From Candidatus Heimdallarchaeota archaeon (GTDB lineage: Archaea; Asgardarchaeota; Heimdallarchaeia; Hodarchaeales; Hodarchaeaceae): a stretch of DNA of 24,000 nucleotides. The DNA lies in contig DXJL01000156.1 in assembly GCA_019057635.1 (NCBI GenBank), positions 46,105 to 70,104 on the forward strand, written 5' to 3'. Made by a program: the position numbers and the translations under genes. This document shows, one piece after another, positions 8,401-24,000 of this stretch (position 1 is its first letter; each line of letters begins with the position of its first letter). The notes under the pieces were generated by a model. It was not told the origin of the DNA and made no database searches. It saw only the letters and a program-made list of their open reading frames with translations.

Positions 8401-9555
8401 CCCGCACCTCTGACAACAAAAGGAACCTCGCGATGTTCGATTCCGCTTATCTACATGGCCACACTTACTACATTGTTGGGAGGTATACGCTTCGTCTACC
8501 CGTACTACGGTCATTCCAACAAGTTTAGCCTTGTATTCAAGCATTTGAACCAATTGGGAGAAGGGAAGTTGAATAAACGACTGATTTATCCGTTTTCCTA
8601 AGTTGCAGTGCTGTTTCCATCCCGCATTATAACCAATGACTAAGGTCTTTATCTTCTGCTCTAAACAGTAGTTGATTATTCGACGGGAGATTTGATGGAA
8701 GATATCGTGGAGCTTATTAATCCGTCTACGATGTAGGCGTTGTATACGACGAGTAGTATACTGATGATTACAGATGGTGGCTAAGGATCGATAATGCGCA
8801 AGTTGCTTGTTATACCACTGATTAATGGTCTTAACTACCCCGCCTTTGACGAGTAAGCCGTCTGACGTAGTTACGAGATTGGTAAGACCGAGATCTATTC
8901 CCATAGTTCGGGATGGAAAATCAGAGGAAGGAAATGGTTGCGCTTGTACTTCATAGAGTAATTCTACCACAAAGCGATCATAAAATGGCACTAACCGCGC
9001 CCCAACACATGCTTCCGCTGTCAATGGAAGAGAATCCAGGGGAAAGGTCGGAAACCCTCGTGCCATGAGATTTCGAGTAAATAGAATTTGGCTATTACGG
9101 ATTCGAACTCTGCGCCGGGGAAAGCTCAGCATATACATTCCGTTCTTGGGTTTATATCTAGGGGTTCGGGGGCGGGTTCGAAACCGGCCAGGATCCTTTT
9201 TCCAAACTTTCAGCGCGTTAAAAAAGCTGCGCCAAGTTTGTTCTACCTGTCGTAGGACCTGTTGGGGTAAATAGCTATCAGACATGTCTTTTAATGCTAG
9301 ATACACTGGTTCGTGCTTGAGGCGATGATATAGGTTGGTATATTGGATCCATTTCCCTGTACTGAAAAATTCTTGTCGTACCTCATATGTCGCTCGATTA
9401 TAGAGATTTTTGGCACAGGTGCACAAATCGGTGAAAATTGGCCTAGGTTTCATTTGCATTCGGATAGCTAATTGGGGTTGAGGGTTTTTCTTGATACGCA
9501 TTCCCATTCCTTTTTGGAATTTTCACTCTTATAAACTTGAGACAAAGAGAGAGCG
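8200..9555 (-). mobile_element. tnpA-less IS200/IS605-family element carrying only tnpB (boundaries approximate)
   Basis: tnpB has no Y1/HUH transposase ORF on either side. Hand counts of 60-nt lines inside tnpB give 43-50% G+C (lines 8941 and 9121), against about 32% in flanking genes (lines 7621 and 9661). The composition step coincides with roughly 8.22 kb and 9.52 kb. Exact LE/RE hairpins were not resolved. Confidence 0.55.
8236..9507 (-). CDS. tnpB: TnpB (IS200/IS605 family OrfB, RNA-guided RuvC-type endonuclease)
   Basis: 423 aa. RuvC triad candidates are D in MGIDLGLTNLV, E in VDEAYTSQQC and D in LNADYNAARNI. A zinc ribbon CSKCG...CCQRCG sits between RuvC-II and RuvC-III. There is an N-terminal helical bundle (NLYNRATYEVRQEF). 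Confidence 0.9.
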   Translation of the reverse strand: MGMRIKKNPQPQLAIRMQMKPRPIFTDLCTCAKNLYNRATYEVRQEFFSTGKWIQYTNLYHRLKHEPVYLALKDMSDSYLPQQVLRQVEQTWRSFFNALKVWKKDPGRFRTRPRTPRYKPKNGMYMLSFPRRRVRIRNSQILFTRNLMARGFPTFPLDSLPLTAEACVGARLVPFYDRFVVELLYEVQAQPFPSSDFPSRTMGIDLGLTNLVTTSDGLLVKGGVVKTINQWYNKQLAHYRSLATICNHQYTTRRIQRLHRRRINKLHDIFHQISRRIINYCLEQKIKTLVIGYNAGWKQHCNLGKRINQSFIQLPFSQLVQMLEYKAKLVGMTVVRVDEAYTSQQCSKCGHVDKRNRTSRGSFCCQRCGVHLNADYNAARNILQRYPTDSQVVPTDSIHSSVTNLPDSGCVTHPVQNSFSRVV

Positions 9556-10302: not shown

Positions 10303-12447
10303 ATGACTAAAAAAATGATTGAAACCACTTTTCCAATCATTGAAATAAGTCAACTCGCCATACCTGAACGCAGCAGCTATAAACCTATTTATCAGATTTC
10401 TAAATGGTTTGCCCGACGATCTTCGGCTATTTTTAGGGCCATTCTCCTTAGCTGTACTCTTAATTCATCAGAGAATTTCATGGACGAATTTTATAATGCT
10501 AAGGATAGTTTCAAAGATATAACTATTCTTGATCCATTTATGGGAGGAGGAACAACAATTATAGAAGCTTTAAGGCTTGGTATGCAATGTATCGGAGTTG
10601 ATATTAATCCAGTTGCATGGTTTATCACTAAAACTGAGAGTGCTATGGTCGATATAGAAGAACTTCAAGGTTTAATCACAAAATGTGAAGAAAACCTTGA
10701 AAATGATGTGAAAAAATGGTATAAAACCTCCTGTCCAGTATGTGAGAATCCCGCTGATATAATTTACACTCATTGGGTCAAATGCTTACCCTGTCCGACA
10801 TGTAATTCACTCATCCCTATGTTTCGTAATTTTCTTGTCGGTTATTTGGCTAATGAGGCAATCCTTCTCTGTCCCTCATGTTATGCAGTATTTCCTTCAA
10901 ATAAACCGATCACATCAGATAATAGATGTCCTGAATGTACTCAAAAATTCAAACCGAGTGCGGGTTTTAGAAAGGGTAGAAAATTGCTCGAATGTCCAGA
11001 TTGTGGAAATTCTGTCAATATCTTAAACTCTATTCGTTCGATTAAGACTCCTCTCGCTTGCAAACCGTTTGCCATTGAAGGATATTGTTGTCACTGTGCA
11101 AATGAGAAAGATCCTGATTCAGACCTTGCAAAATCTAGATATAAATTTATCAAAAGAGTTTCACAAACAGACAGAGATCTTTATAAAAAGGCTGAAGATC
11201 ACTGGAAGAATTATTCAGGCATCTTTCTTTGGCCAAAAGAAGATATCCCGATTGGCATGACAACAAAGGTTTTATTAAATCATAACTATACTAAATGGGC
11301 TGACCTATTTACATACCGTCAATTATTAACTTTGAGTTTAATTTTAAACTTCATTAAAGACATTGAAGAAGAACATCTCCAAGAGATGTTTTTAGCGGCA
11401 TTTCTAAACCTCTTAAATCACAACAATTCGTTTACAAGGTATTCTCCTAAAGGGCAAAAAGTCGAGGGGATATTTTCTCGCCATGATTTTCACCCTTTGT
11501 CTACATTTGCAGAAAATAATGTGTGGGGGACGAGATATGGACGTGGAACTTGGATCAAATGCCTCAAAAGATTACTAGAAGGGAAGAAGTACAACCTTGA
11601 ACCCTATAATTTTACGTCTATAAATTCCAAAGAAAAGATCTCTAAGCGTCGAAGAATCGTATCTGGTAAAATTGATGGAAAAGTATACAATGGAGAAATT
11701 GAGCATTTTCCTGATGAAAAAAGTAATTTACTTCTTCTCTGTCAAGACTCTGAAAAACTTCCCTTGTTTACAAATGGCGTTGACCTTTTGATCTCTGATC
11801 CCCCGTATGCTGATAATGTAAATTATTCAGAACTATCTGATTTCTTATATGTTTGGATTCGATTAATATTACAGGAAAAATATCCCTTCTTTATTCCAGT
11901 TGAGACTCCAAAATTGGGAGAGGCAATTGAAACAAAAAATAGAGGTACTGATTACTATTCCAAACTCTTTAATATTTTTAGAAGCTGTAAGAAACAGCTC
12001 ATCCCAGGTGGGTTGTTTGTATTTACATTTCATCATGGTAATCCTGATACTTGGTTTAAACTTGCTGAAGTAATTGAATCGTCTGGTTTTAGCGTGGTTA
12101 AAACGCATGTTTTGCAGAGTGAAGCCTTGAATGTTCTGAATATCCAAAATAAGAAAGCCGTGTCTTATGATTTAATTCTTGTCTGCCAGCAGAATCAACA
12201 AAAAAGGAAAAAACCCCATAATTTATCAGAATTTGTAGAACGGTTAAGCAAGAATTATGATAAGAAATTTACCTATTATACTGAGATAGGTCTCACAATA
12301 CATACAAATAATGTGATAGTTGTATTCTTTGGTGAATATTTGGAGCTTATTTCAAAGGTACAACCAGTAAACTGGTCAGACTCAATTGCTAAATCTGATC
12401 TAAGAAAAAGTTGTAAAGACCTTTACTCGAGTAAAATTATTGCCTGA
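10303..12447 (+). CDS. DUF1156/COG1743-type adenine-specific DNA methyltransferase with three inserted zinc ribbons
   Basis: 714 aa. N-terminal DUF1156-like block: MIETTFPIIEISQLAIPERS...ISKWFARRSSAIFRAILLS. Motif I: ILDPFMGGGTTIIEALRLGMQCIGVDINPVA. Three CxxC...CxxC pairs: CPVC/CPTC, CPSC/CPEC, CPDC/CCHC. Motif IV: LLISDPPYADNVNYSELSDFLYVWIR, the family-typical DPPY...Y..LSDF.YVW. Confidence 0.8.
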   Translation: MTKKMIETTFPIIEISQLAIPERSSYKPIYQISKWFARRSSAIFRAILLSCTLNSSENFMDEFYNAKDSFKDITILDPFMGGGTTIIEALRLGMQCIGVDINPVAWFITKTESAMVDIEELQGLITKCEENLENDVKKWYKTSCPVCENPADIIYTHWVKCLPCPTCNSLIPMFRNFLVGYLANEAILLCPSCYAVFPSNKPITSDNRCPECTQKFKPSAGFRKGRKLLECPDCGNSVNILNSIRSIKTPLACKPFAIEGYCCHCANEKDPDSDLAKSRYKFIKRVSQTDRDLYKKAEDHWKNYSGIFLWPKEDIPIGMTTKVLLNHNYTKWADLFTYRQLLTLSLILNFIKDIEEEHLQEMFLAAFLNLLNHNNSFTRYSPKGQKVEGIFSRHDFHPLSTFAENNVWGTRYGRGTWIKCLKRLLEGKKYNLEPYNFTSINSKEKISKRRRIVSGKIDGKVYNGEIEHFPDEKSNLLLLCQDSEKLPLFTNGVDLLISDPPYADNVNYSELSDFLYVWIRLILQEKYPFFIPVETPKLGEAIETKNRGTDYYSKLFNIFRSCKKQLIPGGLFVFTFHHGNPDTWFKLAEVIESSGFSVVKTHVLQSEALNVLNIQNKKAVSYDLILVCQQNQQKRKKPHNLSEFVERLSKNYDKKFTYYTEIGLTIHTNNVIVVFFGEYLELISKVQPVNWSDSIAKSDLRKSCKDLYSSKIIA

Positions 12448-12453
12448 TATTGA

Positions 12454-13236
12454 GTGTATAGCATGAGCGACGAATCCAAATACAAACTAGTAATAGGAGA
12501 TGTTAACCATGCTCTACCTAATATGGCAAAAAAACGTTTGTTTGATTTAATCATTGCTGACCCTCCATTTGGAATTTCCTTCAGCAAATCTTCTCATGAA
12601 TATGGAGCAGACGAATATCACCTATATAATGACGATTATACTACTGATAATTATTACGAATTTTCAAAAAAATGGATTTTAAATTGTTATAATGCGCTTA
12701 GTCCAACTGGAAGTCTTTATATTATATCTGGATGGACTAATCTTCAATACATTTTAAATGCACTTGAAACCACAGATTTTCATATGCTAAATCATGCGAT
12801 TTGGCATTTTTCATGGGGGGTCTACACGAAACGTCGCTTTGTTACAAGTCATTACCATATTTTATTGCTTGTAAAAAATCGTAAGAAATATCAGTTCTAT
12901 AAACAAAAGCATTATGATGAAGATGTTTTCTTTTGGCAGGAATACAATAGAGGGAATGACCCTCATCGTATTAAGGGACATCCTTGCCAACTTCCCATAG
13001 TTCTCCTAGAAAAATTAATTCTAACCTCAAGTTCTGTAGGTGATCTAGTAGGAGATGTATTTTCTGGATCTGGAGGGACGATTCTAGCAGCGCGTAAGAC
13101 TGAACGGGATGTAATAGGATTCGAACTTAGAGAAGAATATAAACCCATTATCGAAAAGAAAGCGTTGTTTGGGAAATCTCTATACAAATATAATCAGAAG
13201 AATACACTAGATTCTTACTTAGAAACACAAGAATGA
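12454..13236 (+). CDS. Beta-class N6-A/N4-C DNA methyltransferase (PF01555 type)
   Basis: 260 aa. Motif IV (DLIIADPPFGISF) is N-terminal and motif I (VGDVFSGSGGTILAARKTERDVIGFELREEY) is C-terminal, preceded by GHPCQLPIVLLEKLI. The GTG start at 12454 lies 6 nt after the upstream stop; the ATG alternative is at 12463. Confidence 0.85.
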   Translation: MYSMSDESKYKLVIGDVNHALPNMAKKRLFDLIIADPPFGISFSKSSHEYGADEYHLYNDDYTTDNYYEFSKKWILNCYNALSPTGSLYIISGWTNLQYILNALETTDFHMLNHAIWHFSWGVYTKRRFVTSHYHILLLVKNRKKYQFYKQKHYDEDVFFWQEYNRGNDPHRIKGHPCQLPIVLLEKLILTSSSVGDLVGDVFSGSGGTILAARKTERDVIGFELREEYKPIIEKKALFGKSLYKYNQKNTLDSYLETQE

Positions 13237-13253
13237 GAGTATCGTCTCTCAAG

Positions 13254-14999
13254 TTAGTCTGAAACCAACAGTAGTTCTTTATACGAAGAACATTCATATA
13301 GTTCTAATATTAAATCGTCGATTTCGTCTTTCTGCATAATTCGAGGCTGTGTTGATGGGTGAGAATTCTTGAATTGAGTTTCAATTGTCCCGAGAATCTT
13401 TTCATTATCCTCTGGAGGTCGAATTGGAAGACGTTTCAGATTTTTGATTGAAATTGCATTTGTATATTTTGATCCAAGGTTGAATTGATTTTCATAATAC
13501 CAATGCATAAGACTAGAATTCAGTATTGCTAAAATGTAGTAAAGATAAATTGGTTTTCTTCGCCATTGTTCCTTTAACCGTATATTGTAAACATTCTGAG
13601 TTGTAAGAGTGTTATTTAAATCAATTGCAGCACAGGGAAATTGCTTTATTTTCTGTAACACAATTTTTGGTGATTTGTAGACATTTCGATTCTTTTTAGA
13701 TTTAAATTCTATTGTGTCATTAAAAAAATGAGTAGATTTAATATAATAATGGTTAAAATCATCACCCGTAAGTATTGGTGTAATATGCTCTGACGATTTA
13801 CTGGGATTTATTAGGAATTGGATCAATAATTGACTTTTATCTAGAATCTCATGACATTGAGGACATTCAACTCTAGGTTTTCTACTTGATAATGGTACCC
13901 ACGATGTACAGAAATTACAGTACATTACTCCTCCTTTTTTACTTAGCTCTTCACCCCGCTGTATTGTTACATATTCTTCTAATCCTTTTGCATTTTTCTT
14001 AATTTGATCTAATACTTGGAAAGATGTTTTATCAGTTATGTTCGTAAATATATAATCAGTATTGGTCATGTAGACAGTTTGCAGAATTCTTTCCTCATTA
14101 TCTACAAGAATTTCATTCTTGGATTTGATTTTGTCAGTGAAGAGAGCTACAATTGATATGAATTCCTGTGTTACATGTTCAAATAAATCGTGAAAAAACA
14201 GAGATTTAATCCGATAGTTATGGAGAATGAATTTTCGCAGATTTGCATATTGATTAGACCGTGTTAAGTTTTTTGGGAGATATAATGCCAAGTAACCACT
14301 ATTTGATCTTAGTAAATATGTGCTTTGATATACAAATAGTTCAAACGAGTTCAAATTTCGTCTTGAACCTGATAGTTTAAATTTTTTGAAATAATGAGCT
14401 CTTTCCTCTTTTGTTAATTGACTTCCCCAAGGTGGATTTCCGATAATGAGGTCGAATCCAGGAAAATTCTCAGGTATCTTTTTCCAAGAAGTGAAATCAC
14501 TTTCTAGAAAATTCCCTCTCACTAGATTATTCTTCATCCACTTTGGAATAATTTCTTTGTCTATATCCCAGGAATGCCCTTTTAAAATTTCTTGGCATCC
14601 AAGCAGAGTTCTAGAATTTATTTCCATGCCATACAGGTTGTTTAATATTTTCCTTCGATAATTTTTTGTCTTATTTATTCCTAATTCGGCAAGTCGTTGA
14701 GTTATAGAATCAGAAACTCCAAGTAATAAATGATAGGACGTTATTATAAATTCTCCTTGTCCTACTGAACCGTCAAGGATCGTAAAGCTTAGTATGTACG
14801 ACAATAGTTCTTGTAAGACTTTGGTATTGCCTGAATTGATAATATTTTCAACAGATGAATGTGAAACATTAAACCTACGTCGCATTTGAAATATAATTGC
14901 TTGTTGAATGGCTCGATTCGTCAATTCAAATGCGAGTGAACTTGGAGTGTTAAATGCACCGAAGGATTTTTTGAATTCACTATTCTTCATTGGATCCAA
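13254..14999 (-). CDS. Gamma-class N6-adenine DNA methyltransferase (Eco57I/TaqI-like) with its own C-terminal target-recognition domain
   Basis: 581 aa. Motif X: FGAFNTPSSLA. Motif I: ILDGSVGQGEFI. Motif IV: LIIGNPPWG. Internal zinc ribbon: CNFC...CPQC. The C-terminal TaqI_C/HsdS-like TRD pattern is YLYYILAILNSSLMHWYY...IKNLKRLPI. No N-terminal nuclease domain. Confidence 0.85.
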   Translation of the reverse strand: MDPMKNSEFKKSFGAFNTPSSLAFELTNRAIQQAIIFQMRRRFNVSHSSVENIINSGNTKVLQELLSYILSFTILDGSVGQGEFIITSYHLLLGVSDSITQRLAELGINKTKNYRRKILNNLYGMEINSRTLLGCQEILKGHSWDIDKEIIPKWMKNNLVRGNFLESDFTSWKKIPENFPGFDLIIGNPPWGSQLTKEERAHYFKKFKLSGSRRNLNSFELFVYQSTYLLRSNSGYLALYLPKNLTRSNQYANLRKFILHNYRIKSLFFHDLFEHVTQEFISIVALFTDKIKSKNEILVDNEERILQTVYMTNTDYIFTNITDKTSFQVLDQIKKNAKGLEEYVTIQRGEELSKKGGVMYCNFCTSWVPLSSRKPRVECPQCHEILDKSQLLIQFLINPSKSSEHITPILTGDDFNHYYIKSTHFFNDTIEFKSKKNRNVYKSPKIVLQKIKQFPCAAIDLNNTLTTQNVYNIRLKEQWRRKPIYLYYILAILNSSLMHWYYENQFNLGSKYTNAISIKNLKRLPIRPPEDNEKILGTIETQFKNSHPSTQPRIMQKDEIDDLILELYECSSYKELLLVSD

Positions 15000-15125
15000 T
15001 ATTATTCTACCTAAATGTTATATCTTCTTTTGAGAGCTGAATAGTGTTTTACAGGTCACACTGCAGAAGATAGGATTTAAACTCTGCGATCAAAAATATT
15101 GTATTCCATAATATGAGAAGAGAGA

Positions 15126-15137
15126 AATTTTTATACT
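15126..15137 (+). promoter_or_regulatory. TATA-box-like element upstream of 15160 (short-leader or leaderless transcript)
   Basis: aaatttttatac is centred about 28 nt upstream of the ATG at 15160, which fits archaeal TATA-to-start spacing if the mRNA is leaderless. The background is AT-rich, so specificity is low. Confidence 0.25.
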
Positions 15138-15159
15138 CTCACAATTTATGTGAAGTTAA

Positions 15160-15612
15160 ATGAAAGGTCTAACTCATGTCTTCTTCGGAGTAGGACTTGT
15201 TAGTGCTGTTTTAGCTTACTTACAGATATCCCTAGGTCTATGGGGAATCGGAACATTTATAATAGCACCAATATTTTCTCGTCTACCCGATTTTGATCAA
15301 AAAATTGCGAAAATTACTTTTAATCAGGTTATTCCCCATCGAGGTATTCTTTCACACAATTTACTATATGGAGTTCCAATATTTTTGTGTTTCTATGTAT
15401 CTGATTCCCCAATATTCCTGGTAGCTATTATCTCGGTATTTGGAGCTCTTTTTATTCACGTTTTCGTTGATGCATTTAATTCAGGAGGTGTTTGGATGGG
15501 ACTCTTTCATCTATCATTTGCCAATTTTGGATGGGACTCGTTTTTAGGGAATTTAATTTTTAAGCTCGTAGGGATAGGATTACTAGGAATATCAATTTTC
15601 GTCTATTTATAA
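15160..15612 (+). CDS. Membrane-bound metal-dependent hydrolase, DUF457/YdjM family
   Basis: 150 aa with 4-5 TM segments. Family-like His/Asp positions: MKGLTHVFFG, PHRGILSHNLLYG, FIHVFVDAFNSGGV. Confidence 0.6.
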   Translation: MKGLTHVFFGVGLVSAVLAYLQISLGLWGIGTFIIAPIFSRLPDFDQKIAKITFNQVIPHRGILSHNLLYGVPIFLCFYVSDSPIFLVAIISVFGALFIHVFVDAFNSGGVWMGLFHLSFANFGWDSFLGNLIFKLVGIGLLGISIFVYL

Positions 15613-15648
15613 TCTAAATAGAATTCACTGTCTGGAAAGCGATTCAAA

Positions 15649-16359
15649 ATGGTCGAAACAATATATCTTACCGATATGTACCAAAAAGAGTTTGAAGCGG
15701 AAGTTATTTCTGTAACTGATGATAAATTCATTGTACTTGATCAAACAGCCTTTTATCCTAAGTCGGGAGGAGTTGCTAATGATGAAGGCCACCTTATCCG
15801 TGACAATGATGAGTTTAATGTTGTTTATGTAGGCAAATTTAGTGGTAAAATTTCTCATGAAGTAGATAAGCCAGGTTTAAAAGTGGGTGATAAAATAATT
15901 GGAAAATTAGATTGGGATCGCCGTTACACATTGATGCGATATCACACAGCTGCCCATGTAATATCTGGCGCTTTTTATCATAATTTAAATGCTAAAATAA
16001 CTGGGAATGAGATTTCAATTGACCAAGGAAGAGTGGATTTTAATTTGGAAAACTTTGACCGAGCACTTATCGAAAAAGAAGTTAACAATTCGAACATAAT
16101 AATTTCCAAAGATCATTCTGTTGAAGTGTATTCTCTTGATAGGAAGGATGTTGAGTCAGATCCTGATCTAACGAAACTAGCAATGGGTTTACCTAAAAAT
16201 ATTCAAAAATTAAGAATTGTTGATATCAAAAATTTTGACAGACAACCTGATGGCGGGTGTCATGTCAGATCGCTAAAGGAAATAGGTAATATAAAGATTA
16301 AAAAACTTGTGAATAAAGGAAAAAATAATAGACGTTTATATTTCACAATCGAATCTTAA
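15649..16359 (+). CDS. alaX: Alanyl-tRNA editing protein AlaX-M (tRNA synthetase second additional domain)
   Basis: 236 aa. The zinc-binding HxxxH is in RYHTAAHVISG and the CxxxH-type motif is in PDGGCHVRS. An N-terminal beta-barrel-like region (FYPKSGG) is present. The size fits AlaX-M. Confidence 0.85.
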   Translation: MVETIYLTDMYQKEFEAEVISVTDDKFIVLDQTAFYPKSGGVANDEGHLIRDNDEFNVVYVGKFSGKISHEVDKPGLKVGDKIIGKLDWDRRYTLMRYHTAAHVISGAFYHNLNAKITGNEISIDQGRVDFNLENFDRALIEKEVNNSNIIISKDHSVEVYSLDRKDVESDPDLTKLAMGLPKNIQKLRIVDIKNFDRQPDGGCHVRSLKEIGNIKIKKLVNKGKNNRRLYFTIES

Positions 16360-16371
16360 AGGTGAAAAAAA

Positions 16372-17727
16372 ATGGAAATAGTAGTCATAGGAGGAAATGC
16401 TGCTGGCTTAAGTGCAGCTAGTGCTATCAGGAGAATACACCACGATTGGCAGATCGATGTATATGAAAAAGATCAATATATCTCATTCGGTTCGTGCGGT
16501 ATCCCGTACTATGTTTCAGAAACCGTTGAAAATCTTCATAGTTTAATCACTCTCACGCCTGAAATAGTTGAGAAGAAAAGAAAAATACCCGTTCATTTGA
16601 TGAACGAGGTAATTGATGTTGATTTTAACTCAAAAACCTTAACAATTTTAGATAAGAATACAAAATCTCAGTATAATCGTTCTTATAAAATACTAATTAT
16701 CGCTACTGGAGCACACGCAACCTCCTCCCCAGAATTAAATCTTGAACATGAACGAATATTTTTCGTACATAATCTTAGTCATGCTGAAAAATTAAGAACT
16801 TTCTTGAAGACCCCTAACCATAAAATTCAATCTGTGGCCATAATCGGAGCAGGATACATAGGATTAGAGATGTTGGAAGCATATAAAGCACAAGGCATTA
16901 ATGATATTACGATTATTGGGCCTCGTCTTGTTTTTCGATCACAAAGCCAAGAATATTTACTTAAAGAGCTGAAATCTCATGAGATTAAGGCTATCCTTGG
17001 GAAAAGAGTAAGTCAACTAGAAGGTCTATCAAAGGACAGAATTAAAATTTATCTTGATGATCATTCCTCAATAGAAACAGATTTATTACAAATTTCCATA
17101 GGTGTTTCACCTGCAACTGACATCTTTATGAATAAAGGGTTACACATGCTGTCAAATGGGGCAATCTTAACAGATGAATATATGAAAACTAATATTTCTG
17201 ATGTTTATGCAGCTGGTGATTGTATTGCATCATACCACCAAATTTTGAAACAACATGTATATTATCCTTTAGCGCCTGCTGCAAATAAACAGGGACGTTT
17301 AGCTGGATCAATAATTGCTGGGAAAGAAGTTAGCCCTTATCCGGGTATCGTCGGAACTTCAATCTTTAAAGTTCTTGATCTTTATTGCGCGAGAACTGGA
17401 ATTTCATTAGAACAGGCTGTAGAAATGGGTTTTGATGCAGAATCTATACTGATTGAAAATAATGAGATTGCTCATTATATGGGTACAAAGAAGATGTCAG
17501 TCTTTTTGGTTTTCGACCCTAAAAGTCATCTTCTATTGGGAGCGGAAATAACTGCTCCTACTGCGCTTGGTGCAAAAAAAATTGATACCTTGGCCACAGC
17601 TTTGTCTGCAAAGATGAAAATTGAGGATGTTCAGTCATTAGATTTGGCTTATGCTCCTCCATTCGCCCCAGTTTGGGATCCAATTTTAGTAGCCGCTAAT
17701 ATCGCAAGTAAGAAGCTAGCAAAATGA
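16372..17727 (+). CDS. FAD-dependent pyridine nucleotide-disulfide oxidoreductase, CoA-disulfide reductase / NADH oxidase type
   Basis: 451 aa. FAD fold: VVIGGNAAGLSAA. Single redox-active Cys motif: SFGSCGIPYY. NAD(P) fold: VAIIGAGYIGLEM. Also AAGDC and a C-terminal dimerisation domain. SD-like aaggtga lies upstream. Confidence 0.85.
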   Translation: MEIVVIGGNAAGLSAASAIRRIHHDWQIDVYEKDQYISFGSCGIPYYVSETVENLHSLITLTPEIVEKKRKIPVHLMNEVIDVDFNSKTLTILDKNTKSQYNRSYKILIIATGAHATSSPELNLEHERIFFVHNLSHAEKLRTFLKTPNHKIQSVAIIGAGYIGLEMLEAYKAQGINDITIIGPRLVFRSQSQEYLLKELKSHEIKAILGKRVSQLEGLSKDRIKIYLDDHSSIETDLLQISIGVSPATDIFMNKGLHMLSNGAILTDEYMKTNISDVYAAGDCIASYHQILKQHVYYPLAPAANKQGRLAGSIIAGKEVSPYPGIVGTSIFKVLDLYCARTGISLEQAVEMGFDAESILIENNEIAHYMGTKKMSVFLVFDPKSHLLLGAEITAPTALGAKKIDTLATALSAKMKIEDVQSLDLAYAPPFAPVWDPILVAANIASKKLAK

Positions 17728-17948
17728 GAATATTATAATCTTAGATAAATAATTAAGTTTCTTAGTCAGGAATTCATTCACAGTAACATTTGAAGACAAG
17801 ATCAGTTTTTTAATTTGCCACAATCATTTTACTTAAGAATGCTAATGTTTAAGGAAGTACATAATTCATTTTATGGGTCCACCTGAATCGATTGTTGATT
17901 ATTCTCGCGTAAGAGTAACAATAATGATTCACCTCTAGTACACAAAGC

Positions 17949-17981
17949 GGGAATGACTTGCCAGTCCAGCAAATCATTCCC
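17949..17981. other. 13-bp stem (one mismatch) / 7-nt loop GC-containing hairpin in a convergent intergenic region
   Basis: gggaatgacttgc (17949-17961) pairs with gcaaatcattccc (17969-17981), with loop cagtcca. A T-run (ccttttta) follows within about 20 nt. Confidence 0.4.
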
Positions 17982-18051
17982 AATTCTCCATAAATCCTTT
18001 TTATTATAAATTTAAAAATAAATTAGCTGGATTACACTTCAGGAAAATCAA

Positions 18052-18408
18052 TCAACGCATAGCAATAACGTCTATCATTAATCCTGCATTTAAAGGTAGC
18101 GCAGCTGCTTGTAAAGTTGATCGAGTTGGAGGGTCACTTGGGAATGATTTTGCATATTCCTCATTAACTTGTTTGAAATCCTCAATATTTGTGAGATATA
18201 TTGTAGTTTTGACCACATCGCTCATAAAAGCACCCGCATTCTTTAATAAATTTTCTATCTTCTTCATTATTTGTTGTGTTTGAACTATAATGTTTGCATC
18301 TAGGTCAGTGGCAATTTGTCCTGAAAGAAAGATAAAATTTGTTCCTGAAGCAACTATCGCTGGAGAATATGGTCCAACAATCTTTCCTGTTTGAATTATT
18401 TGTCGCAT
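18052..18408 (-). CDS. ridA: RidA/YjgF/TdcF-family reactive enamine/imine deaminase
   Basis: 118 aa. GPYSPAIVASGTNFIFLSGQIA and the C-terminal PTRSTLQAAALPLNAGLMIDVIA follow the family consensus. Confidence 0.85.
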   Translation of the reverse strand: MRQIIQTGKIVGPYSPAIVASGTNFIFLSGQIATDLDANIIVQTQQIMKKIENLLKNAGAFMSDVVKTTIYLTNIEDFKQVNEEYAKSFPSDPPTRSTLQAAALPLNAGLMIDVIAMR

Positions 18409-18426
18409 ATTATTTCATCTCAATAT

Positions 18427-18855
18427 TCACATTTTTTCTGGAAGCGATAGGAGTTTCAAGTTTGTTTCGGAATCTAATTCACGAATAACTTTAGGTTTGA
18501 ATACCATGACAGAAAGCTCACAGGTAACCGAAATAATACACCCTGGTAAAATATGCCCCCCCACACAAGTTCCATCGACTCTACCAAAAATTCCATGAAG
18601 ATGAACAATTTGGTTCTCTGCAATATTACCAATTATCGACAGTACTTCAAGATTTTCTTCCAAAATAGTTTCTAGATATTTTTCTCCGTTAAAAAACCCA
18701 TATATTGCTTGTGATACAGCCCCTATCCCATAAATCGACCCAGCTCCAATATCTGGATGTTTCTCACAAAACTTTTCTAATGATAGAAGTAGATCTTCAC
18801 CTTTTAATAATCGTATTAAGAAGCTATATTGGTGTGTTTGTCGCATAAATTCCAT
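18427..18855 (-). CDS. PPC (DUF296) domain protein
   Basis: 142 aa. The LSIIGNI......VHLHGIFGRVDGTCVGGHILPGCIISVTCEL pattern is typical of PPC/DUF296. It lies 18 nt upstream of ridA on the same strand, so an operon is probable. Confidence 0.7.
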   Translation of the reverse strand: MEFMRQTHQYSFLIRLLKGEDLLLSLEKFCEKHPDIGAGSIYGIGAVSQAIYGFFNGEKYLETILEENLEVLSIIGNIAENQIVHLHGIFGRVDGTCVGGHILPGCIISVTCELSVMVFKPKVIRELDSETNLKLLSLPEKM

Positions 18856-19097
18856 AATTTATCAACGCTACGTGATGTCTATATTCGGGAAGAATATTTG
18901 CGAAATTATAAATTTATTCTGTAAATAAAAAGAGTTTTACACCTCAGAGATTTAATTAAAGAGTAATCCTTGTGCAAAGTATCAATTGAGTATAATTTGA
19001 ACCACAAAATTTTTAAATAATAGATCGTAGAAGTTCCTAGTAGTGGGAGAATTAAGAAATAACCCTTCTTCCGAGATTTCGCTCAGGTGCTAGAACC

Positions 19098-20075
19098 ATG
19101 AAGATTCATTGTGATAGTGATTGCCGACCATGTGTCTTTGAAGGGGGGCCAAGTCGTGATATTTCAGATCAATTCGAAGCTAATTATTGCCCTACCTGCA
19201 GGAAAGCTTTTTTCTGTGATGTAGGAGTAATTCAACACTTCTCTGCCGCTAGTAGCGTTTCCTATTCTTGTGTGGATTGCAATACTCCTCTACTGACAAA
19301 ATCTCTTGAAGAAATTAGTATGCTTCAAGCTCGTTTCTCCTTGAAGAATCAATCACATTCTAGTCGTCTCTCTTATAAACAAAAATTTATTCCCAAAAAG
19401 GATTTAGCGTCTCTTAAATCGCTTTCAATGTTATACGATATTAAATCTGTAAGTACTTATCACCGCTCACTGATTGATGAAATCCGTCATATTTCAGGGT
19501 TATCACCACAGGTTATCAGAAATTTTGCCCGGGAGTATGGGATTAGCGAGACGATTATTTCTAACCTATCTGGAGAACGAGAAGAAATTCTTCTCACACT
19601 TGCCAGCTTACAACCAAAATTCATTGAAATACTGTATGCAATAATAATTGGTCGCGATCCTTCTATCGAAGGAGGAATAGCGTTAAGATTCACTGTTTAC
19701 TCTGAAAATATTGGAGATATTGTTTTTATTCAGCCATCTGGGGCATTAATAGAAAGCGGTCCATTTGACCTAATCGCTTATGATCATCAAGGTATGATGA
19801 TTTGGATTTTTTGCATACAAGAAACTGTCGATATTGACGATATAAGTAAAATCGTAAGCCCAATATTAAATCAAACATTAGATGAATTTAAGGGTATTTC
19901 AAGTATTTATATTGTCGCTCAAGCATTTTCGTGGGTATCTAAACAAATTTTAAAGAAATATCAAGGTATTATTATCAGAGAGGGAGAAAAAACACGAACT
20001 ATTCCTTTCAAGTTATGGACTGAGGAAAAAAAATCAGATCAAGCTCAAATCTTATTTAAATCGGAAATCCTCTGA
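19098..20075 (+). CDS. Uncharacterised protein: N-terminal Cys-cluster/zinc ribbon, central HTH-like segment, C-terminal restriction-endonuclease-like (Mrr_cat-like) region
   Basis: 325 aa. Cys at positions 5, 9, 12, 31, 34, 40, 58 and 61, including CPTC...CVDC. HTH-like segment: GLSPQVIRNFAREYGISETIISNLSG. C-terminal FDLIAYDHQGMMIWIFCIQETVDIDDISKIV...IYIVAQAFSWVSKQILKKY resembles the Mrr-type core layout but has QET where (Q/E)xK is expected. SD-like caggtg lies upstream of the ATG. Confidence 0.6.
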   Translation: MKIHCDSDCRPCVFEGGPSRDISDQFEANYCPTCRKAFFCDVGVIQHFSAASSVSYSCVDCNTPLLTKSLEEISMLQARFSLKNQSHSSRLSYKQKFIPKKDLASLKSLSMLYDIKSVSTYHRSLIDEIRHISGLSPQVIRNFAREYGISETIISNLSGEREEILLTLASLQPKFIEILYAIIIGRDPSIEGGIALRFTVYSENIGDIVFIQPSGALIESGPFDLIAYDHQGMMIWIFCIQETVDIDDISKIVSPILNQTLDEFKGISSIYIVAQAFSWVSKQILKKYQGIIIREGEKTRTIPFKLWTEEKKSDQAQILFKSEIL

Positions 20076-20091
20076 AGGCGTGTGAGTTTTT

Positions 20092-20622
20092 TTGTCTTCC
20101 CCGACACAAGTAAATGGTTTTCATCCGTATTATAAAATAGTATTCCTTGGAAAACAAGGAGTTGGGAAAACCTCAATTATAAGAAGACTAGTTGCTTCAA
20201 ATGTTGATACAGAATATGTACCTACTCTTGGAATTTACTATTATAATTTAGAATTAGAGTATCAGAAACACAATTACTATCTCCAATTCTGGGATATATC
20301 TAATAGCTTGGATTATCAAATAAAGAACTTCTTGCAGAATGCAGCAGTCGTCGTATTGATTTTTGACTTTGCTGATAGGGAATCCCACATCTATGTAAAT
20401 CAGGTTTTTGAGACTATTAAAGAAGCAAACCCCTTCATGAAATTCCTTCTTGTTGGAAATCGATCAAAAGGGGAAAAAGAAAAACCTCCCAAGAATTTGA
20501 ATAATTTAGTGAATGAACACAATTTAACAATATACCCTATGTCCCCTCAAAATAACTCGGGGATGTCTTTGCTATTACAAGCAATTGTACATGATCTACC
20601 TCGTCCTACCGAGAGAGATTAG
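20092..20622 (+). CDS. Ras-superfamily small GTPase-like protein with degenerate G3 and G4 motifs
   Basis: 176 aa. The TTG start is forced: an in-frame TGA at 20083-20085 and no other start codon before the P-loop. G1 GKQGVGKT is at 20149-20172. G2 Thr is in YVPTLGI. G3 is WDISNS (20290-20307) instead of WDTAGQ. G4 is NRSK (20458-20469) instead of NKxD. Starts 16 nt after the upstream gene. Confidence 0.8.
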   Translation: MSSPTQVNGFHPYYKIVFLGKQGVGKTSIIRRLVASNVDTEYVPTLGIYYYNLELEYQKHNYYLQFWDISNSLDYQIKNFLQNAAVVVLIFDFADRESHIYVNQVFETIKEANPFMKFLLVGNRSKGEKEKPPKNLNNLVNEHNLTIYPMSPQNNSGMSLLLQAIVHDLPRPTERD

Positions 20623-20628
20623 ATCCTC

Positions 20629-21030
20629 TTATTTCCATTCCTCTTCATCATTTGGTAAGCAAGAGGCTTGGACAATTTCACACTCCCACCAGCGTGTACC
20701 AACTTCAAATGGGCAGCTATCATCCGTGATTTGGCACTTTCTCTCCTCTGTTAAGTATAAACAAAAACTTGACATTGTTAGACGTAGATTCATTTTCCCT
20801 GGTGCTTCTCCCATCTCATACTTCTTTGATATGGTTTCCTTTATTTCTTGATAATTCTGAATCTGTAAGGTGGTGATAATACTTCCAGTTTTAAAAGTAA
20901 TTCCCCCAGCAAGAGAATCATCGAATTCAAGAAATTTAAATAACTGTCTTTGCAGATTATCAAGAATTTCGTCATCGATATCCATTACGCCCATGAGTTG
21001 TAGCATTTCGCGCAATTTCTTTCTAAACAT
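20629..21030 (-). CDS. Hypothetical 133-aa protein with a C-terminal four-Cys cluster
   Basis: This is the longest ORF in an otherwise 577-bp gap. A GGTG (complement of 21040-21045) lies about 9 nt upstream of the ATG. The C-terminus is CQITDDSCPFEVGTRWWECEIVQASC. No family was recognised. Competing + strand ORFs (20585-20851, 20870-21073) are shorter and low-complexity. Confidence 0.5.
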   Translation of the reverse strand: MFRKKLREMLQLMGVMDIDDEILDNLQRQLFKFLEFDDSLAGGITFKTGSIITTLQIQNYQEIKETISKKYEMGEAPGKMNLRLTMSSFCLYLTEERKCQITDDSCPFEVGTRWWECEIVQASCLPNDEEEWK

Positions 21031-21110
21031 CCAACTTTACACCAGATATTTTATGGGGGAGGGAGTAAAATAATCATAAATCCCATTTTCTACGTATGTA
21101 TCATGTACGA

Positions 21111-21130
21111 GATTATATTTATAATATTGC
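21111..21130. promoter_or_regulatory. TATA-rich element in the divergent intergenic region between 21030(-) and 21200(+)
   Basis: gattatatttataatattgc lies about 70-90 nt upstream of the TTG at 21200 and about 80-100 nt upstream of the minus-strand ATG. It could serve either or both divergent genes. This is inference only. Confidence 0.25.
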
Positions 21131-21199
21131 TAACGGATTCGGTACAAGAATTTTTGTCTTTCTCGAAAACTTTTTCGATTCTCTAAAGGTGTTACAATT

Positions 21200-24000
21200 T
21201 TGACAGACCATGATTTTCAACCAGTTGCATGGGTTTCACTCGCCTCTCTATCAGGATTAAGCCTGGTGTCTTTAGGACAACCAGGATTAAAATCTGTGGA
21301 CGAACAAGTATATACAGGTGGTTTAACAGCTGTACAACAGATGTTGGGTGGAGAAATTGGTGGAGATACGAGCCGTTTTGTTGGGGGCAGTCATAACAAT
21401 AAAACTGGGAGATTTCTTGTAAAAACACCTGATTATGAACTTGTTGGCCAGTTTTTATTAATTTCTCGTCAGCATATTGCCGTAGCGCCTGTTCTTGTCG
21501 AGTTTTATGAGCAATTGGTTACATTCTTTGCTGAGGAGACCCTAAAAACTGATCTTGTTGAACGTGCAGAGAAGGAATTTACTGCGTTTGGAATCTCGGA
21601 TGTTTTAGATTTCTTTCTGAGTAGTATAAAGAAAGCCAGGAAAAAAGTATCAATCCCTCATAATGATAATCTTTTCAGTCAATCACTTGAAGAAAGCCTT
21701 GAAAAATCAATCAGTGATTATGAATACTCTGCTTCCTTGGTTAAAATTTCAAATCTAAAAGGAAAGTTTCATGAAATTGTTCCAACGATCCAAGCTGAAA
21801 GAAAAGATCTACTAGAAAAATTTACACATGAATTAATGGAATTCCTGGCAAGTGAATATCCTCACTCGGTTGTAATGTATTCTAAAGCGAGTTCGCTTCT
21901 AAAAGAAGTAAGAAAGTATGTTGAAAGAAACCTGGGTACTTTCAAATTTGATGCTGCATTGCAAGAAGTGATCCGTGAGTTCGAAGAGAACGATCTTCGA
22001 ATGTTTCTTGAAGATATTTCCTTACATGAAGTTACTAAGAAAAACCTTCGTTCTCGTATTGAAGATGCGATTTTTCGTAAATATCTCAAAGAGTTTCCCC
22101 TTTATTTTTTAGCAAACCCAGAAATAACCTCCTTTAACACCGAAGTAGGTCATTTAACGACACGAATAAACGAAAATTATGATATTGGGGGTACACTATC
22201 GCGAATTGCAGAAAAAATGATCGAAGATAAGATTTTTGCTAATTTACTAATACCTTACATAAGATATTTTTGTGAAGAATTTTCTGCAGGATTAACTCCT
22301 TCTGCATGGAAGTATATGCAAATCGTTTTTAAATTAATAAGTAATGAAACAAAAATTGATATCTTAGATGTATTACCCGCGATGAAAGATGAAATTCCTC
22401 CTTCTCATTTCAGTACTATCGAAAAAATGATGACTAAATTCAAGTTGACCGGAACCAAATTATCTCCGCTTTCTTTCACAGTAAAAAAAGCCAGTGATGT
22501 ACTTCCTTTTTATCGTGCTCTTTTTTCGTCTCTTGCTTTCGGTGTAAATGCAGTTATCTCGGAATTAGCATTCAGTGAGGAGAACCCAAATAATCTGCTT
22601 GAAACATTGAATAAAAATCTTGATCTTTTAGCTCGTGATCTTCACCAATCTCATGGAATTTTCAAAGTATATTCCTATTTAGAGAGCGTCCAGTCAAAAG
22701 TCTCATTTTCTTTTGCATTCCCCGATGACAAGATTACTTCGGAAAAAATCTTGAGTAATCAGCTTACAATCGATGAGTTGATGCAATCGGTGATTGATGC
22801 AAATGTGAAGAGCTTGTCAGAAGAAGGACAGCTTATTAAAAAGAAAATTACAGCGTTTCGTTCAGAATTCGATGATGAGATTAAGAATATTCTAAGATAT
22901 TTATCTCAAAAACCGCAGGATATTTCTAAAGGGTACCAACTCAAGATTGCTAAGCGACACTCGTTAAAATTTACTATAAGGCCCATATCCGAAGTAAATT
23001 CAAACATAACGAAAAATCTTTCTGAATTTGATAAATTAATGACAGACCTGCAAGAAAATCTTAAGAAATCGAAAAATGCTTCAAAAGAATTTGTAAATGG
23101 AAAATTAAAAGAGCAGGAACTTAAAAAAGTTTTGAAGAACCAAGGATTTATCAAAGACACTGAGAAAGAATTCCGAAAAATTACTGAAAAAATGGAATCA
23201 GCCGTAACAAAAAGTTACAGCAATGTATTATCTCTGGTAGAAAAGCAAGTAAAGGGTGTGTCAAAAGAAGCCTCAAAAACGTTTATGCAAGCCTGCAATT
23301 TCTTAAATATAAACAGAAAAAATCTTGCTAATCAAGATAGTAAATTAATTTCGGCCTCCTCTGCGTCAATGAAAAGCATTCAAAAATCTATCACAGAAAG
23401 TTTCGAAAAAGACCCATTCTTTGAATTTAAGAACGTAGGACGATATTATTTTTATGCAATATACAGATCTTTACCTAATAATTTACAGTCAGAAGTTTTA
23501 GACGCTCTTGTTACCAAAAAGAGTTATCCTTTTTTGAAAGAATCGATTACTAAAGTTACATCGTCATCCGATATATTCCGTAGTTATGCTAAAGTATTAG
23601 AAACGCATGCTTATGAGCTCTTATCGAATGTGTTTAGTTCTTCTGGGAAACTTGTCGGAAAAAACGTATTTAAATCTGATCCAGAAGTTAAAATAGTAAT
23701 TCAAAATAATATCCCTGTTCCAACACTTGAAGTGGGTTATCTTACAAATGAAAGGGCAGTTAAATCGTTAAAATCCCTTTATGGAACACGAATTGTTGTT
23801 GAAACAGAAAAATCAGAGAATAATGCCATTTATAGAATTTTACTTGTTGTTCCAAGTTTTAAAAGTGATTATAGTACAATGAAACATTTCTGGGAAACCA
23901 AGGATTGGACCCTGAAAAAGACTGTAATTACTCTGAGTTGGTTTTCCTTATTAGCACAGAACAAATTCTATTTGGACCTTCTTCGTTTCTCATCAGATTT
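21200..24000 (+). CDS. Large uncharacterised protein (more than 933 aa, 3' end beyond the window) with an N-terminal Roadblock/LC7/longin-like domain
   Basis: Frame 2 is open from the TAA at 21131-21133 to nt 24000 with no stop. It is not in the supplied track, presumably because it has no stop in the window. TTG at 21200 is preceded by aaaggtg (21185-21191) with an 8-nt spacer; the first in-frame ATG is at 21341. My translation begins (M)TDHDFQPVAWVSLASLSGLSLVSLGQPGLKSVDEQVYTGGLTAVQQMLGGEIGG... The remainder looks mostly helical, with a coiled-coil-like Lys/Glu stretch around 23.0-23.3 kb. Confidence 0.8.
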   Translation, partial: MTDHDFQPVAWVSLASLSGLSLVSLGQPGLKSVDEQVYTGGLTAVQQMLGGEIGGDTSRFVGGSHNNKTGRFLVKTPDYELVGQFLLISRQHIAVAPVLVEFYEQLVTFFAEETLKTDLVERAEKEFTAFGISDVLDFFLSSIKKARKKVSIPHNDNLFSQSLEESLEKSISDYEYSASLVKISNLKGKFHEIVPTIQAERKDLLEKFTHELMEFLASEYPHSVVMYSKASSLLKEVRKYVERNLGTFKFDAALQEVIREFEENDLRMFLEDISLHEVTKKNLRSRIEDAIFRKYLKEFPLYFLANPEITSFNTEVGHLTTRINENYDIGGTLSRIAEKMIEDKIFANLLIPYIRYFCEEFSAGLTPSAWKYMQIVFKLISNETKIDILDVLPAMKDEIPPSHFSTIEKMMTKFKLTGTKLSPLSFTVKKASDVLPFYRALFSSLAFGVNAVISELAFSEENPNNLLETLNKNLDLLARDLHQSHGIFKVYSYLESVQSKVSFSFAFPDDKITSEKILSNQLTIDELMQSVIDANVKSLSEEGQLIKKKITAFRSEFDDEIKNILRYLSQKPQDISKGYQLKIAKRHSLKFTIRPISEVNSNITKNLSEFDKLMTDLQENLKKSKNASKEFVNGKLKEQELKKVLKNQGFIKDTEKEFRKITEKMESAVTKSYSNVLSLVEKQVKGVSKEASKTFMQACNFLNINRKNLANQDSKLISASSASMKSIQKSITESFEKDPFFEFKNVGRYYFYAIYRSLPNNLQSEVLDALVTKKSYPFLKESITKVTSSSDIFRSYAKVLETHAYELLSNVFSSSGKLVGKNVFKSDPEVKIVIQNNIPVPTLEVGYLTNERAVKSLKSLYGTRIVVETEKSENNAIYRILLVVPSFKSDYSTMKHFWETKDWTLKKTVITLSWFSLLAQNKFYLDLLRFSSD

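Follow-up and report, generated by a model that had tools for sequence, protein, structure and literature searches.

Small GTPases that are regulated by proteins of the longin/roadblock superfamily are already known, including examples from Asgard archaea, in which the GTPase genes as a rule do not share operons with those for roadblock or longin proteins (PMC10933270). Since the genes are usually unlinked, it is an open problem which of the many small GTPases of Hodarchaeales pairs with which longin or roadblock regulator (PMC10933270). Longin domains have the topology beta-beta-alpha-beta-beta-beta-alpha-alpha and differ from roadblock domains in having no N-terminal helix (PMC10933270). Longins of the FLCN and SMCR8 type occur in Heimdallarchaeia (PMC12290439). 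Here we describe a block of four genes from the Hodarchaeales, which may be the archaea most closely related to eukaryotes. The block lies at the end of a stretch of 24,000 nucleotides (“the window”) from Candidatus Heimdallarchaeota archaeon (contig DXJL01000156.1, positions 46,105 to 70,104), and codes for a 325 aa protein (ORF1), a divergent GTPase, a 133 aa cysteine protein (p133) and a 955 aa protein which we refer to as the giant.

The original prediction regarded the four genes as one GTPase-centred module and offered a regulatory and a defence reading. Such a module was not supported, as no co-localisation beyond general synteny was found. We interpret the region as two adjacent transcription units within a long stretch of genes whose order is conserved in Hodarchaeales: one consists of ORF1 and the GTPase gene, and the other, older one of the p133/giant pair and a methyltransferase gene. 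We favour the regulatory reading at modest confidence, as the gene for a Rab-like GTPase lies two genes from that for a longin-type protein whose nearest structural neighbours are GTPase regulators. The longin-type domain of the giant would be a docking and regulatory platform, with the adjacent GTPase as its probable client and ORF1 as an effector or adaptor, and to this we assign a probability of about 0.4.

In the mechanism that we envisage, the giant would serve as a scaffold that uses its highly conserved N-terminal longin-type domain to dock a small GTPase. In Hodarchaeales, this would most likely be the Rab-like product of the nearby gene, and the docking would be akin to the way in which MglB, Ragulator, GATOR1, FLCN-FNIP and TRAPP bind and regulate their GTPases. 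Hydrolysis or a change of state of the GTPase would depend on a partner, because the protein itself lacks the catalytic Gln. ORF1, presumably made from the same mRNA, would act as effector or adaptor of the GTPase, and would do so as a binding module (possibly for nucleic acid) and not as a nuclease. The analysis shows the gene structure and its conservation, the Ras-superfamily membership and motif degeneration of the GTPase, the predicted folds and the phyletic pattern. The physical interactions, the direction of regulation (as GTPase-activating protein, GAP, or as guanine nucleotide exchange factor, GEF), the metal binding and the cellular process that is served are all elements that we infer.

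The giant could not be linked to any family by sequence and profile searches against Pfam, NCBIfam and the PDB, and a Pfam match is also absent from its 51 homologue clusters (at least 41% identity). An AlphaFold model, built from 43 sequences and with a mean predicted local distance difference test score (pLDDT) of 87.3, consists of an N-terminal domain, about 700 helical residues (120–820), an alpha/beta domain (829–883) and C-terminal helices. At the N-terminus, DSSP assigns beta(9–15)-beta(21–25)-alpha(36–49)-beta(59–63)-beta(67–75)-beta(80–88)-alpha(97–115)-alpha and no N-terminal helix. Residues 9–149 of the model thus follow the longin topology, which is a prediction with pLDDT values below 50 at residues 29–56.

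A Foldseek comparison of the giant with the PDB yielded nothing at E≤1e-3. The matches listed (probabilities up to 0.97 and E values of 0.1–2, with the aligned part of the query not specified in the output) are all weak but are dominated by GTPase regulators of the longin/roadblock superfamily. Among them are NPRL subunits from KICSTOR-GATOR1 (9o5a_C, 9o5d_C), GATOR1-Rag (6ces_N) and the SEA complex (8adl_S), the longin domain of Lst4 (4zy8), the longin domain of a Lokiarchaeota Roadblock-Longin protein (8yqg) and LAMTOR subunits (probabilities up to 0.97). Further matches are to dynein LC7, to bacterial and Thorarchaeota roadblock proteins, to Mon1-Ccz1 and to Fuzzy-Inturned. For Lst4, NPRL, 8yqg and Mon1-Ccz1 the probabilities were 0.3–0.9, at E values of at least 0.1. 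The N-terminus had been described as Roadblock, which holds at the level of the superfamily but is not supported by the sequence and does not agree with the longin-type topology: there is no match to Pfam Robl_LC7, the model begins with the first strand and has no helix before it, and an hhalign comparison with a genuine Heimdall Robl_LC7 protein gave a probability of 0.1. On this modest evidence, the predicted domain is better called longin-type. The C-terminal alpha/beta domain (829–883) might be roadblock-like.

The first 150 residues are the most conserved part of the giant, with 74–79% mean column identity as compared to 43–47% for the whole protein. In a wide family, collected by a full-library HMMER search with an N-terminal giant profile (30 representatives), residues W11, G19, G26, G29, G40, E52 and G54 are invariant. 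R71 (in the sequence GRF of the beta3-beta4 region) and Q84 are nearly so, and R59 is invariant only within the Hodarchaeales. The most conserved stretch, nearly invariant across the order, comprises residues 29–56 (21284–21367; Gly-rich, GLKSVDEQVYTGGLTAVQQMLGGEIGGDT), and it is also the sole segment with a pLDDT below 50. The poor modelling of these residues is compatible with an interface that becomes ordered only upon binding.

The putative client is, to judge from its sequence, a Rab-like member of the Ras superfamily. It passes the Pfam cut-offs for Ras (66.6 bits, cut-off 21.6, E 2.5e-18) and Roc (59.6 bits, cut-off 27, E 4.6e-16), and its best PDB sequence matches are to Ypt6, Rab6, Sec4 and Rab1 (3e-15 to 1e-9). 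Motifs were compared in an alignment of 18 orthologues taken from related loci. The window protein has the G1 motif (GKQGVGKT) and the switch I Thr (G2, YVPT), and both are retained in its orthologues. In place of DxxGQ, the G3 motif is DVSGN in other clades and WDISNS in the window clade, which has thereby lost the switch II Gly. The catalytic Gln is found in none of the aligned orthologues, which fits a dependence on a partner. At G4, the window clade has NRSK and has thus lost the Asp for guanine specificity, and most orthologues have NK[FAS]E, instead of NKxD. With a Pfam Ras match above the cut-off and degenerate G3 and G4 motifs, the label “divergent GTPase” in the original prediction was correct. 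A prenylation Cys or lipidation motif was not found at the C-terminus, which reads ...DLPRPTERD. We regard the protein as soluble. This is the fastest-evolving gene of the block (33–41% identity, as compared to ~55% for ORF1, ~65% for p133 and ~45% for the giant), and in the window clade its product may be a pseudo-GTPase.

ORF1 and the GTPase gene, separated by a 16 nt spacer, are presumably co-transcribed, and their order and strand are identical in every ORF1 locus, comprising 19 from a one-genome-per-species scan and 9 from a metagenome scan. The ORF1 family is restricted to Hodarchaeales. It comprises 48 homologue clusters, which are 52–96% identical to the window protein and all lack a Pfam match. 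All homologues are from metagenome-assembled genomes (MAGs) of Heimdall-group Asgard archaea, mostly labelled Hodarchaeales or Hodarchaeota, the closest being B3_Heim (96% identity). ORF1 had no match in Pfam, NCBIfam, PADLOC or the PDB sequences, and sequence searches revealed no helix-turn-helix (HTH) or DNA-binding family. Eight conserved Cys occur within the first 61 residues, with CxxC pairs as in zinc ribbons. Scattered weak matches of family members to Zn-ribbon entries of Pfam and short beta-hairpins in the AlphaFold model indicate that this region probably forms two zinc ribbons, which would bind zinc. The middle part is helical and conserved in the alignment.

The AlphaFold model of ORF1 is of moderate confidence (mean pLDDT 70.5, with 80–90 in the C-terminal half). 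The predicted C-terminal domain has elements in the order alpha-beta-beta-beta-alpha-beta, and although Foldseek returned nothing from the PDB at E≤1e-3 (best E value 5.9e-3), the top matches all have the restriction-endonuclease fold: NucS/EndoMS (2vld, 5gkj), Card1, SfsA, AF1548 and EcoO109I, at E values of 6e-3 to 0.1. An invariant motif in this domain, GP[FY]D-L-x-A-Y-D ... G-M-x-I-W-x-F-C, contains D224. The catalytic (D/E)xK motif is absent from the family alignment, the relevant strand reading W-[IV]-F-C239-[IV]-Q/P/K/R/E-G and being unconserved at this position. From the model, we conclude that the domain probably adopts a PD-(D/E)xK-like fold whose active site is degenerate. ORF1 had been called endonuclease-like, which is appropriate for the fold (NucS/EndoMS at E 6e-3) but not for the missing ExK motif. 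As the (D/E)xK position is not conserved, the degenerate site suggests a binding module and not a demonstrated nuclease.

The third product, p133, is represented by 43 homologue clusters (at least 57% identity), again with no Pfam match. Its description as a Cys protein was borne out: C90, C99, C106, C117 and C124 are invariant among the Hodarchaeales orthologues, and four of the five are retained in a distant homologue (locus L026). The cluster is of the metal type, and p133 may bind a metal. An hhalign comparison showed no similarity to the giant N-terminus or to the genuine Heimdall Robl_LC7 protein. We considered p133 as a Trm112-like methyltransferase partner and rejected this, as sequence and profile searches gave no support.

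All four reading frames are real, constrained genes, because their homologue sets consist mostly of full-length proteins; about 20 other genomes code for such homologues of each gene, at 33–96% identity. Three of the four products (ORF1, p133 and the giant) represent lineage-restricted orphan families, for which Pfam, NCBIfam, PADLOC and the PDB yielded no meaningful match by sequence or profile. The layout that had been proposed (a same-strand pair, a convergent gene for the 133 aa Cys protein and a divergent giant) was confirmed (Table 1). The stop codons of the GTPase and p133 genes are 6 nt apart, and the spacer between the p133 and giant genes is presumed to be a bidirectional promoter. 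Within the window, the giant is 100% identical over 933 residues to a database protein (P0049). As the latter has 955 aa, only the last 22 codons are missing from the window, and the gene would end near position 24067. The G+C content is ~35% across the whole window, and the block shows no compositional break. A search of the window for Rfam families and tRNAs found none.

Table 1. Features of the four-gene block and its left neighbours, in window coordinates.
Feature	Position	Strand	Remarks
RidA/L-PSP protein	18052–18408	-	Pfam Ribonuc_L-PSP 4.1e-26; beyond the PCC gene as seen from ORF1
PCC-domain protein	18427–18855	-	Pfam PCC 1.7e-25; divergent from ORF1
ORF1	19098–20075	+	325 aa; reading frame
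ORF1 N-terminal Cys region	19110–19283	+	Residues 5–61; conserved C5, C9, C12, C31, C34, C40, C58, C61
ORF1 C-terminal alpha/beta domain	19710–20072	+	Residues ~205–325; predicted PD-(D/E)xK-like fold, active site degenerate
GTPase gene	20092–20622	+	176 aa; TTG start, 16 nt past ORF1
p133 gene	20629–21030	-	133 aa; convergent with the GTPase gene, divergent from the giant gene
p133/giant spacer	21031–21199	.	169 nt; AT-rich, divergent, sequence read directly
Giant gene	21200 to past 24000	+	TTG start; 933 of 955 aa inside the window
Giant N-terminal longin-type domain (predicted)	21200–21655	+	Residues 1 to ~150; AlphaFold topology

Gene neighbours in the ORF1 loci were mapped by tblastn. Every locus that is long enough has the arrangement PCC(-) / ORF1(+) GTPase(+) p133(-) giant(+), in about 20 species, and the genes for PCC and RidA adjoin ORF1 in all loci. 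Directly downstream of the giant gene, beyond the end of the window, relatives carry a methyltransferase gene on the same strand, at a distance of 17–126 nt in all Hodarchaeales loci. Its product (209 aa in locus L002, where the region beyond the giant is 15028–19388) matches HemK2/MTQ2 (NCBIfam hemK_rel_arch, PRK14968) and human N6AMT1 (PDB), with scores under the curated cut-offs (66–82 bits as compared to 87). HemK2/Mtq2/N6AMT1 is a protein glutamine methyltransferase that works together with Trm112. Its substrate motif is G-Q-x3-R, and the sequence LGQPGL[RK] of the giant was considered as such a motif but was rejected, as the Gln varies (Q/H/K/R).

The giant is also found beyond the order. 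Its wide family includes proteins of 960–1019 aa (E values of 1e-37 to 2e-4) from MAGs labelled Odin-, Thor-, Prometh- or Hodarchaeales, with two paralogues in one MAG, and a full-length giant profile aligns end to end with the distant proteins. The context of five distant giant loci was retrieved and scanned with hidden Markov models for all four families. In four of the five, the methyltransferase gene directly follows the giant gene, with the strand and spacing seen in Hodarchaeales, and the giant in L029 has no such gene. The persistent partner of the giant is thus encoded outside the region on which the original prediction had focused. A p133 homologue is encoded divergently upstream of the giant in one of the five (L026; hmmsearch E 1e-23). 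The deep persistent unit is accordingly (p133)-giant-methyltransferase, and ORF1-GTPase is a Hodarchaeales-specific operon that lies beside it by chance or selection. The original prediction had named co-localisation in other genomes as the test of the module: the four genes always occur together within Hodarchaeales, but not in the distant loci, so that the outcome speaks partly against it.

Two of these distant loci have additional features in common. The giant-methyltransferase pair is flanked by a gene for a DRG-type GTPase (MMR_HSR1 and TGS domains; L026 11766–12941, L028 9955–11004) and by a gene for a Mut7-C domain protein (L026 4214–4804, L028 5472–5933), which hints at a translation- or RNA-related neighbourhood. 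In two other loci (L027 4870–7725 and L030 1–1674, both on the minus strand), a conserved protein of ~950 aa with no Pfam match is encoded divergently from the giant homologue. The two proteins are 38% identical to each other, have a hydrophobic, membrane-like N-terminus and are unrelated to the giant.

The favoured reading of the giant as a docking platform for the Rab-like GTPase draws on the invariant ORF1-GTPase arrangement, on the Rab-like class and the consistent lack of the catalytic Gln, on the predicted longin topology and strong conservation of the giant N-terminus together with its Foldseek matches, on the recurrence of the divergent p133-giant pairing in a distant lineage (L026), and on the lack of a defence or mobile signal. 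Because Asgard GTPase genes are generally unlinked to roadblock or longin genes, the adjacency of the GTPase and giant genes is mildly informative, although not decisive. Several points weigh against this reading. The longin assignment comes from one AlphaFold model and from Foldseek matches with E values of at least 0.1, and sequence profiles provide no link to longin or roadblock families. GAP-type longins (FLCN, NPRL2, SMCR8) have a GP motif before beta2 and an Arg finger (PMC12290439), and this GP motif is missing from the giant at the defined position, where the loop reads S-x-S/T-G19-[LIM] with an invariant Gly and no Pro; a conserved G26-x-P28-G29 occurs after beta2, past that position. 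R71, and within the Hodarchaeales also R59, may be considered as candidates for an Arg finger. With its NRSK and DISNS motifs, the GTPase of the window clade may not bind guanine nucleotide at all. In none of the five distant loci is ORF1 or a Rab-like GTPase encoded within 8 kb of the giant, which consequently needs no GTPase encoded beside it. Finally, the synteny is unspecific, as a longer string of genes, RidA-PCC | ORF1-GTPase-p133-giant-methyltransferase-p236-p408-RHH-p171-Metallophos-gyrB-gyrA (RHH, ribbon-helix-helix), is equally conserved across the order. This RidA-to-gyrase block comprises at least 14 genes, so that at least 10 further genes co-localise with the four. The co-localisation of the four genes in Hodarchaeales is perfect yet uninformative, because unrelated genes such as gyrase are equally syntenic. 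It is therefore quite possible that the adjacency is coincidental, with ORF1-GTPase and p133-giant-methyltransferase being independent neighbours kept by general gene order. The giant would then work with the HemK2/Mtq2-like methyltransferase as its partner, substrate or scaffold, possibly in a process linked to translation or the ribosome, and any GTPase client would be encoded elsewhere. The giant-methyltransferase pairing in all Hodarchaeales loci and in four of the five distant ones, the HemK2/MTQ2 and N6AMT1 matches, the DRG-type GTPase gene next to two of the distant pairs, the distant giants that have neither ORF1 nor a Rab-like GTPase nearby and the plainly unrelated genes in the conserved block are all consistent with this. 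Yet a longin-type domain beside a small GTPase corresponds to a functional pairing that is well known, the match of the methyltransferase lies under the curated cut-offs and so assigns no substrate, and in L029 the giant occurs without it. If the units are indeed unrelated, the locus is a caution that conserved gene order within a single order is no evidence of a module.

The remaining explanations appear less probable. That ORF1 and the GTPase form a nucleic-acid-directed unit that regulates processes related to the chromosome or to transcription, in which ORF1 binds DNA or RNA under the control of the GTPase and the giant and p133 are unrelated, is suggested by the domain composition of ORF1 (zinc ribbons, helical domain, inactivated nuclease fold), by the divergent gene for the PCC protein (PPC/DUF296-type), by an SMC-related protein (NF045487) encoded nearby in most species and by gyrase further downstream. 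We nevertheless consider it quite unlikely, as no HTH or DNA-binding family is recognised in the ORF1 sequence, and the arguments from the neighbourhood suffer from the same block-wide synteny. The defence reading, an anti-virus defence or signalling system that is switched by the GTPase and has the endonuclease-like domain of ORF1 as effector or sensor, found no support and is very improbable. The C-terminal fold of ORF1 does resemble that of NucS, Card1, Cap4 and restriction enzymes, no other gene of the block evolves as fast as that of the GTPase, which also coincides with assembly breaks in three assemblies, and the window clade has a methylase/TnpB islet 4 kb upstream. However, PADLOC matched the block proteins only with noise from short P-loop (LeoA, BrxF) and coiled-coil (ZorA) models, ORF1 was not found on viral contigs and has no (D/E)xK catalytic residues, and the islet is clade-specific and parted from the cluster by five unrelated genes, among them those for AlaX, an oxidoreductase, RidA and PCC. 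Furthermore, the block occupies one fixed, core-syntenic position near gyrase in every genome examined, and no variable island. A bolder version of the regulatory reading, which we consider unlikely, is that the giant is an archaeal single-chain counterpart of the eukaryotic longin GTPase regulators (of the GATOR1, FLCN-FNIP, C9orf72-SMCR8 or Mon1-Ccz1 type) that, together with a metal-binding p133, controls the neighbouring, catalytically dependent Rab-like GTPase of Hodarchaeales, ORF1 being an exapted nuclease-fold effector and the HemK2-like methyltransferase modifying a component. If true, this would be a large GTPase-regulatory scaffold that has not been described before and that predates eukaryotes.

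The relatives also provide information on the wider neighbourhood. Downstream of the methyltransferase gene, they carry genes on the opposite strand for two orphan paralogues of 236 and 408 aa, which share 33% identity and have no Pfam or NCBIfam match. These are followed by genes for an RHH protein, a coiled-coil protein of 133–171 aa, a metallophosphoesterase, gyrB and gyrA. The variable part is the left flank only. In most species it carries a CYTH gene and one for an archaea-specific SMC-related protein of 610–615 aa (NF045487, 354 bits, cut-off 300), the CYTH gene preceding the latter, which lies beside RidA (L004 7114–8946, L005 6938–8785). In the window clade, the left flank holds an oxidoreductase, AlaX, YdjM and a methylase islet. 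The view that the block sits between ordinary housekeeping genes holds in part: it is flanked by PCC and RidA on one side and, past the window end, by the HemK2-like methyltransferase on the other, and the variable methylase/TnpB islet is ~4 kb upstream.

The assembly is broken within the GTPase gene in three independent cases: a Logan contig stops at residue 155, and two chromosome-level MAGs, CP070665.1 and CP070760.1, have gaps near residues 89 and 65. The positions are the end of L001, 11124–11373 in L005/L012, 11211–11310 in L024 and 8959–9058 in L025. Bin76 (CP070665.1) and bin272 (CP070760.1) at first sight have split clusters with a truncated GTPase, but the missing half of the gene in bin272 is found at another scaffold joint, followed by p133, giant and methyltransferase. 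The breaks coincide exactly with scaffold gaps of 100 N, and the apparent splits are scaffolding artefacts; a split-intein or split-gene GTPase was dropped as an explanation for the same reason. In bin76, the unrelated DNA joined by scaffolding carries genes for Robl_LC7 and Yip1-domain proteins, which might give the false impression of a GTPase-Roadblock-Yip1 operon. The assembly breaks in this gene may be due to strain variation or to paralogue repeats.

The upstream part of the window contains several elements of its own. A DNA methylase fragment (7357–8172, minus strand), which matches only positions 140–220 of the N6_N4_Mtase profile, lies beside a TnpB/Cas12f-like gene (8236–9507, minus strand; OrfB_IS605 and TNB domains), and by its sequence this region resembles an IS605-family element that adjoins a truncated methylase. 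At 10303–14999 (L002 1–5938), three DNA methyltransferase genes occur in a row, coding for proteins of 714 aa (DUF1156-type), 260 aa (N6_N4 type) and 581 aa (Eco57I/TaqI_C type). Close relatives (88% ORF1 identity) have an extra gene for a 966 aa helicase (Dna2/AAA_11/AAA_12) between the Eco57I-like gene and YdjM, which is absent from the window. We regard this region as a variable islet of the restriction-modification or defence-like kind that is specific to the window clade. Further upstream, a 396 aa protein (3079–4269, minus strand) has a weak, below cut-off match to the nSTAND3 NTPase (E 4e-4), and its neighbour is a 393 aa ORF (4745–5926) with no Pfam match.

What is new at this locus is the architecture of the giant, the domain combination of ORF1, the p133 family and the association of the giant with a methyltransferase. 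Three uncharacterised families are thereby defined, and the persistence with which the giant is accompanied by a HemK2/Mtq2-like enzyme was unexpected. The fixed genomic pairing of a Gln-less Rab-like GTPase with a large, conserved longin-type protein offers a concrete candidate pair of GTPase and regulator for biochemistry. Individual components can be related to known proteins, each with clear differences. The closest relatives of the GTPase are Rab proteins (Ypt6/Rab6, Sec4, Rab1), which are its top PDB sequence matches and with which it shares G1 and the switch I Thr, but it differs in lacking the prenylation Cys and in having DISNS/DVSGN in place of DxxGQ and NRSK/NKxE in place of NKxD. 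The C-terminal domain of ORF1 shares with PD-(D/E)xK nucleases such as NucS/EndoMS, Card1/Can2 and AF1548 the predicted core fold and a conserved P-x-D at the start of the second core strand, but its (D/E)xK position is not conserved and there is no match at the sequence level. Instead of the half-barrel of NucS or a CARF domain, ORF1 has the probable zinc ribbons and a helical domain. The methyltransferase resembles HemK2/Mtq2/N6AMT1 by family match but differs by its score below the cut-off and by being paired with a 955 aa longin-type protein in place of Trm112, to which p133 shows no match.

At the level of the system, two comparisons are the most relevant. As in MglA-MglB and in the Rab/Rag-like GTPases of Asgard archaea with their roadblock and longin proteins (Tran et al. 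2024, PMC10933270), a Ras-superfamily GTPase devoid of the standard catalytic apparatus is encoded near a protein with a predicted fold of the longin/roadblock superfamily, here also in an Asgard host. In contrast to these systems, the longin-type domain forms the N-terminal part of a mostly helical protein of 955 aa and not a dimeric protein of ~120 aa; the GTPase and giant genes are not in one operon but are separated by a convergent gene; the giant has no sequence similarity to Robl_LC7; and its distant orthologues have no GTPase neighbour. The eukaryotic longin GAP complexes, GATOR1 (NPRL2/NPRL3), FLCN-FNIP/Lst7-Lst4 and C9orf72-SMCR8, provide the best, albeit weak, structural matches through their NPRL subunits and Lst4, with none at E 1e-3 or better. 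They differ in that no DENN, TINI or winged-helix region is recognised in the giant, in their GP motif, and in their client, which is Rag or Arf in eukaryotes and would be the Rab-like neighbour here. With these complexes the giant shares its large size, its multidomain organisation, a predicted N-terminal longin domain and a conserved Arg (R71) in the beta3-beta4 region.

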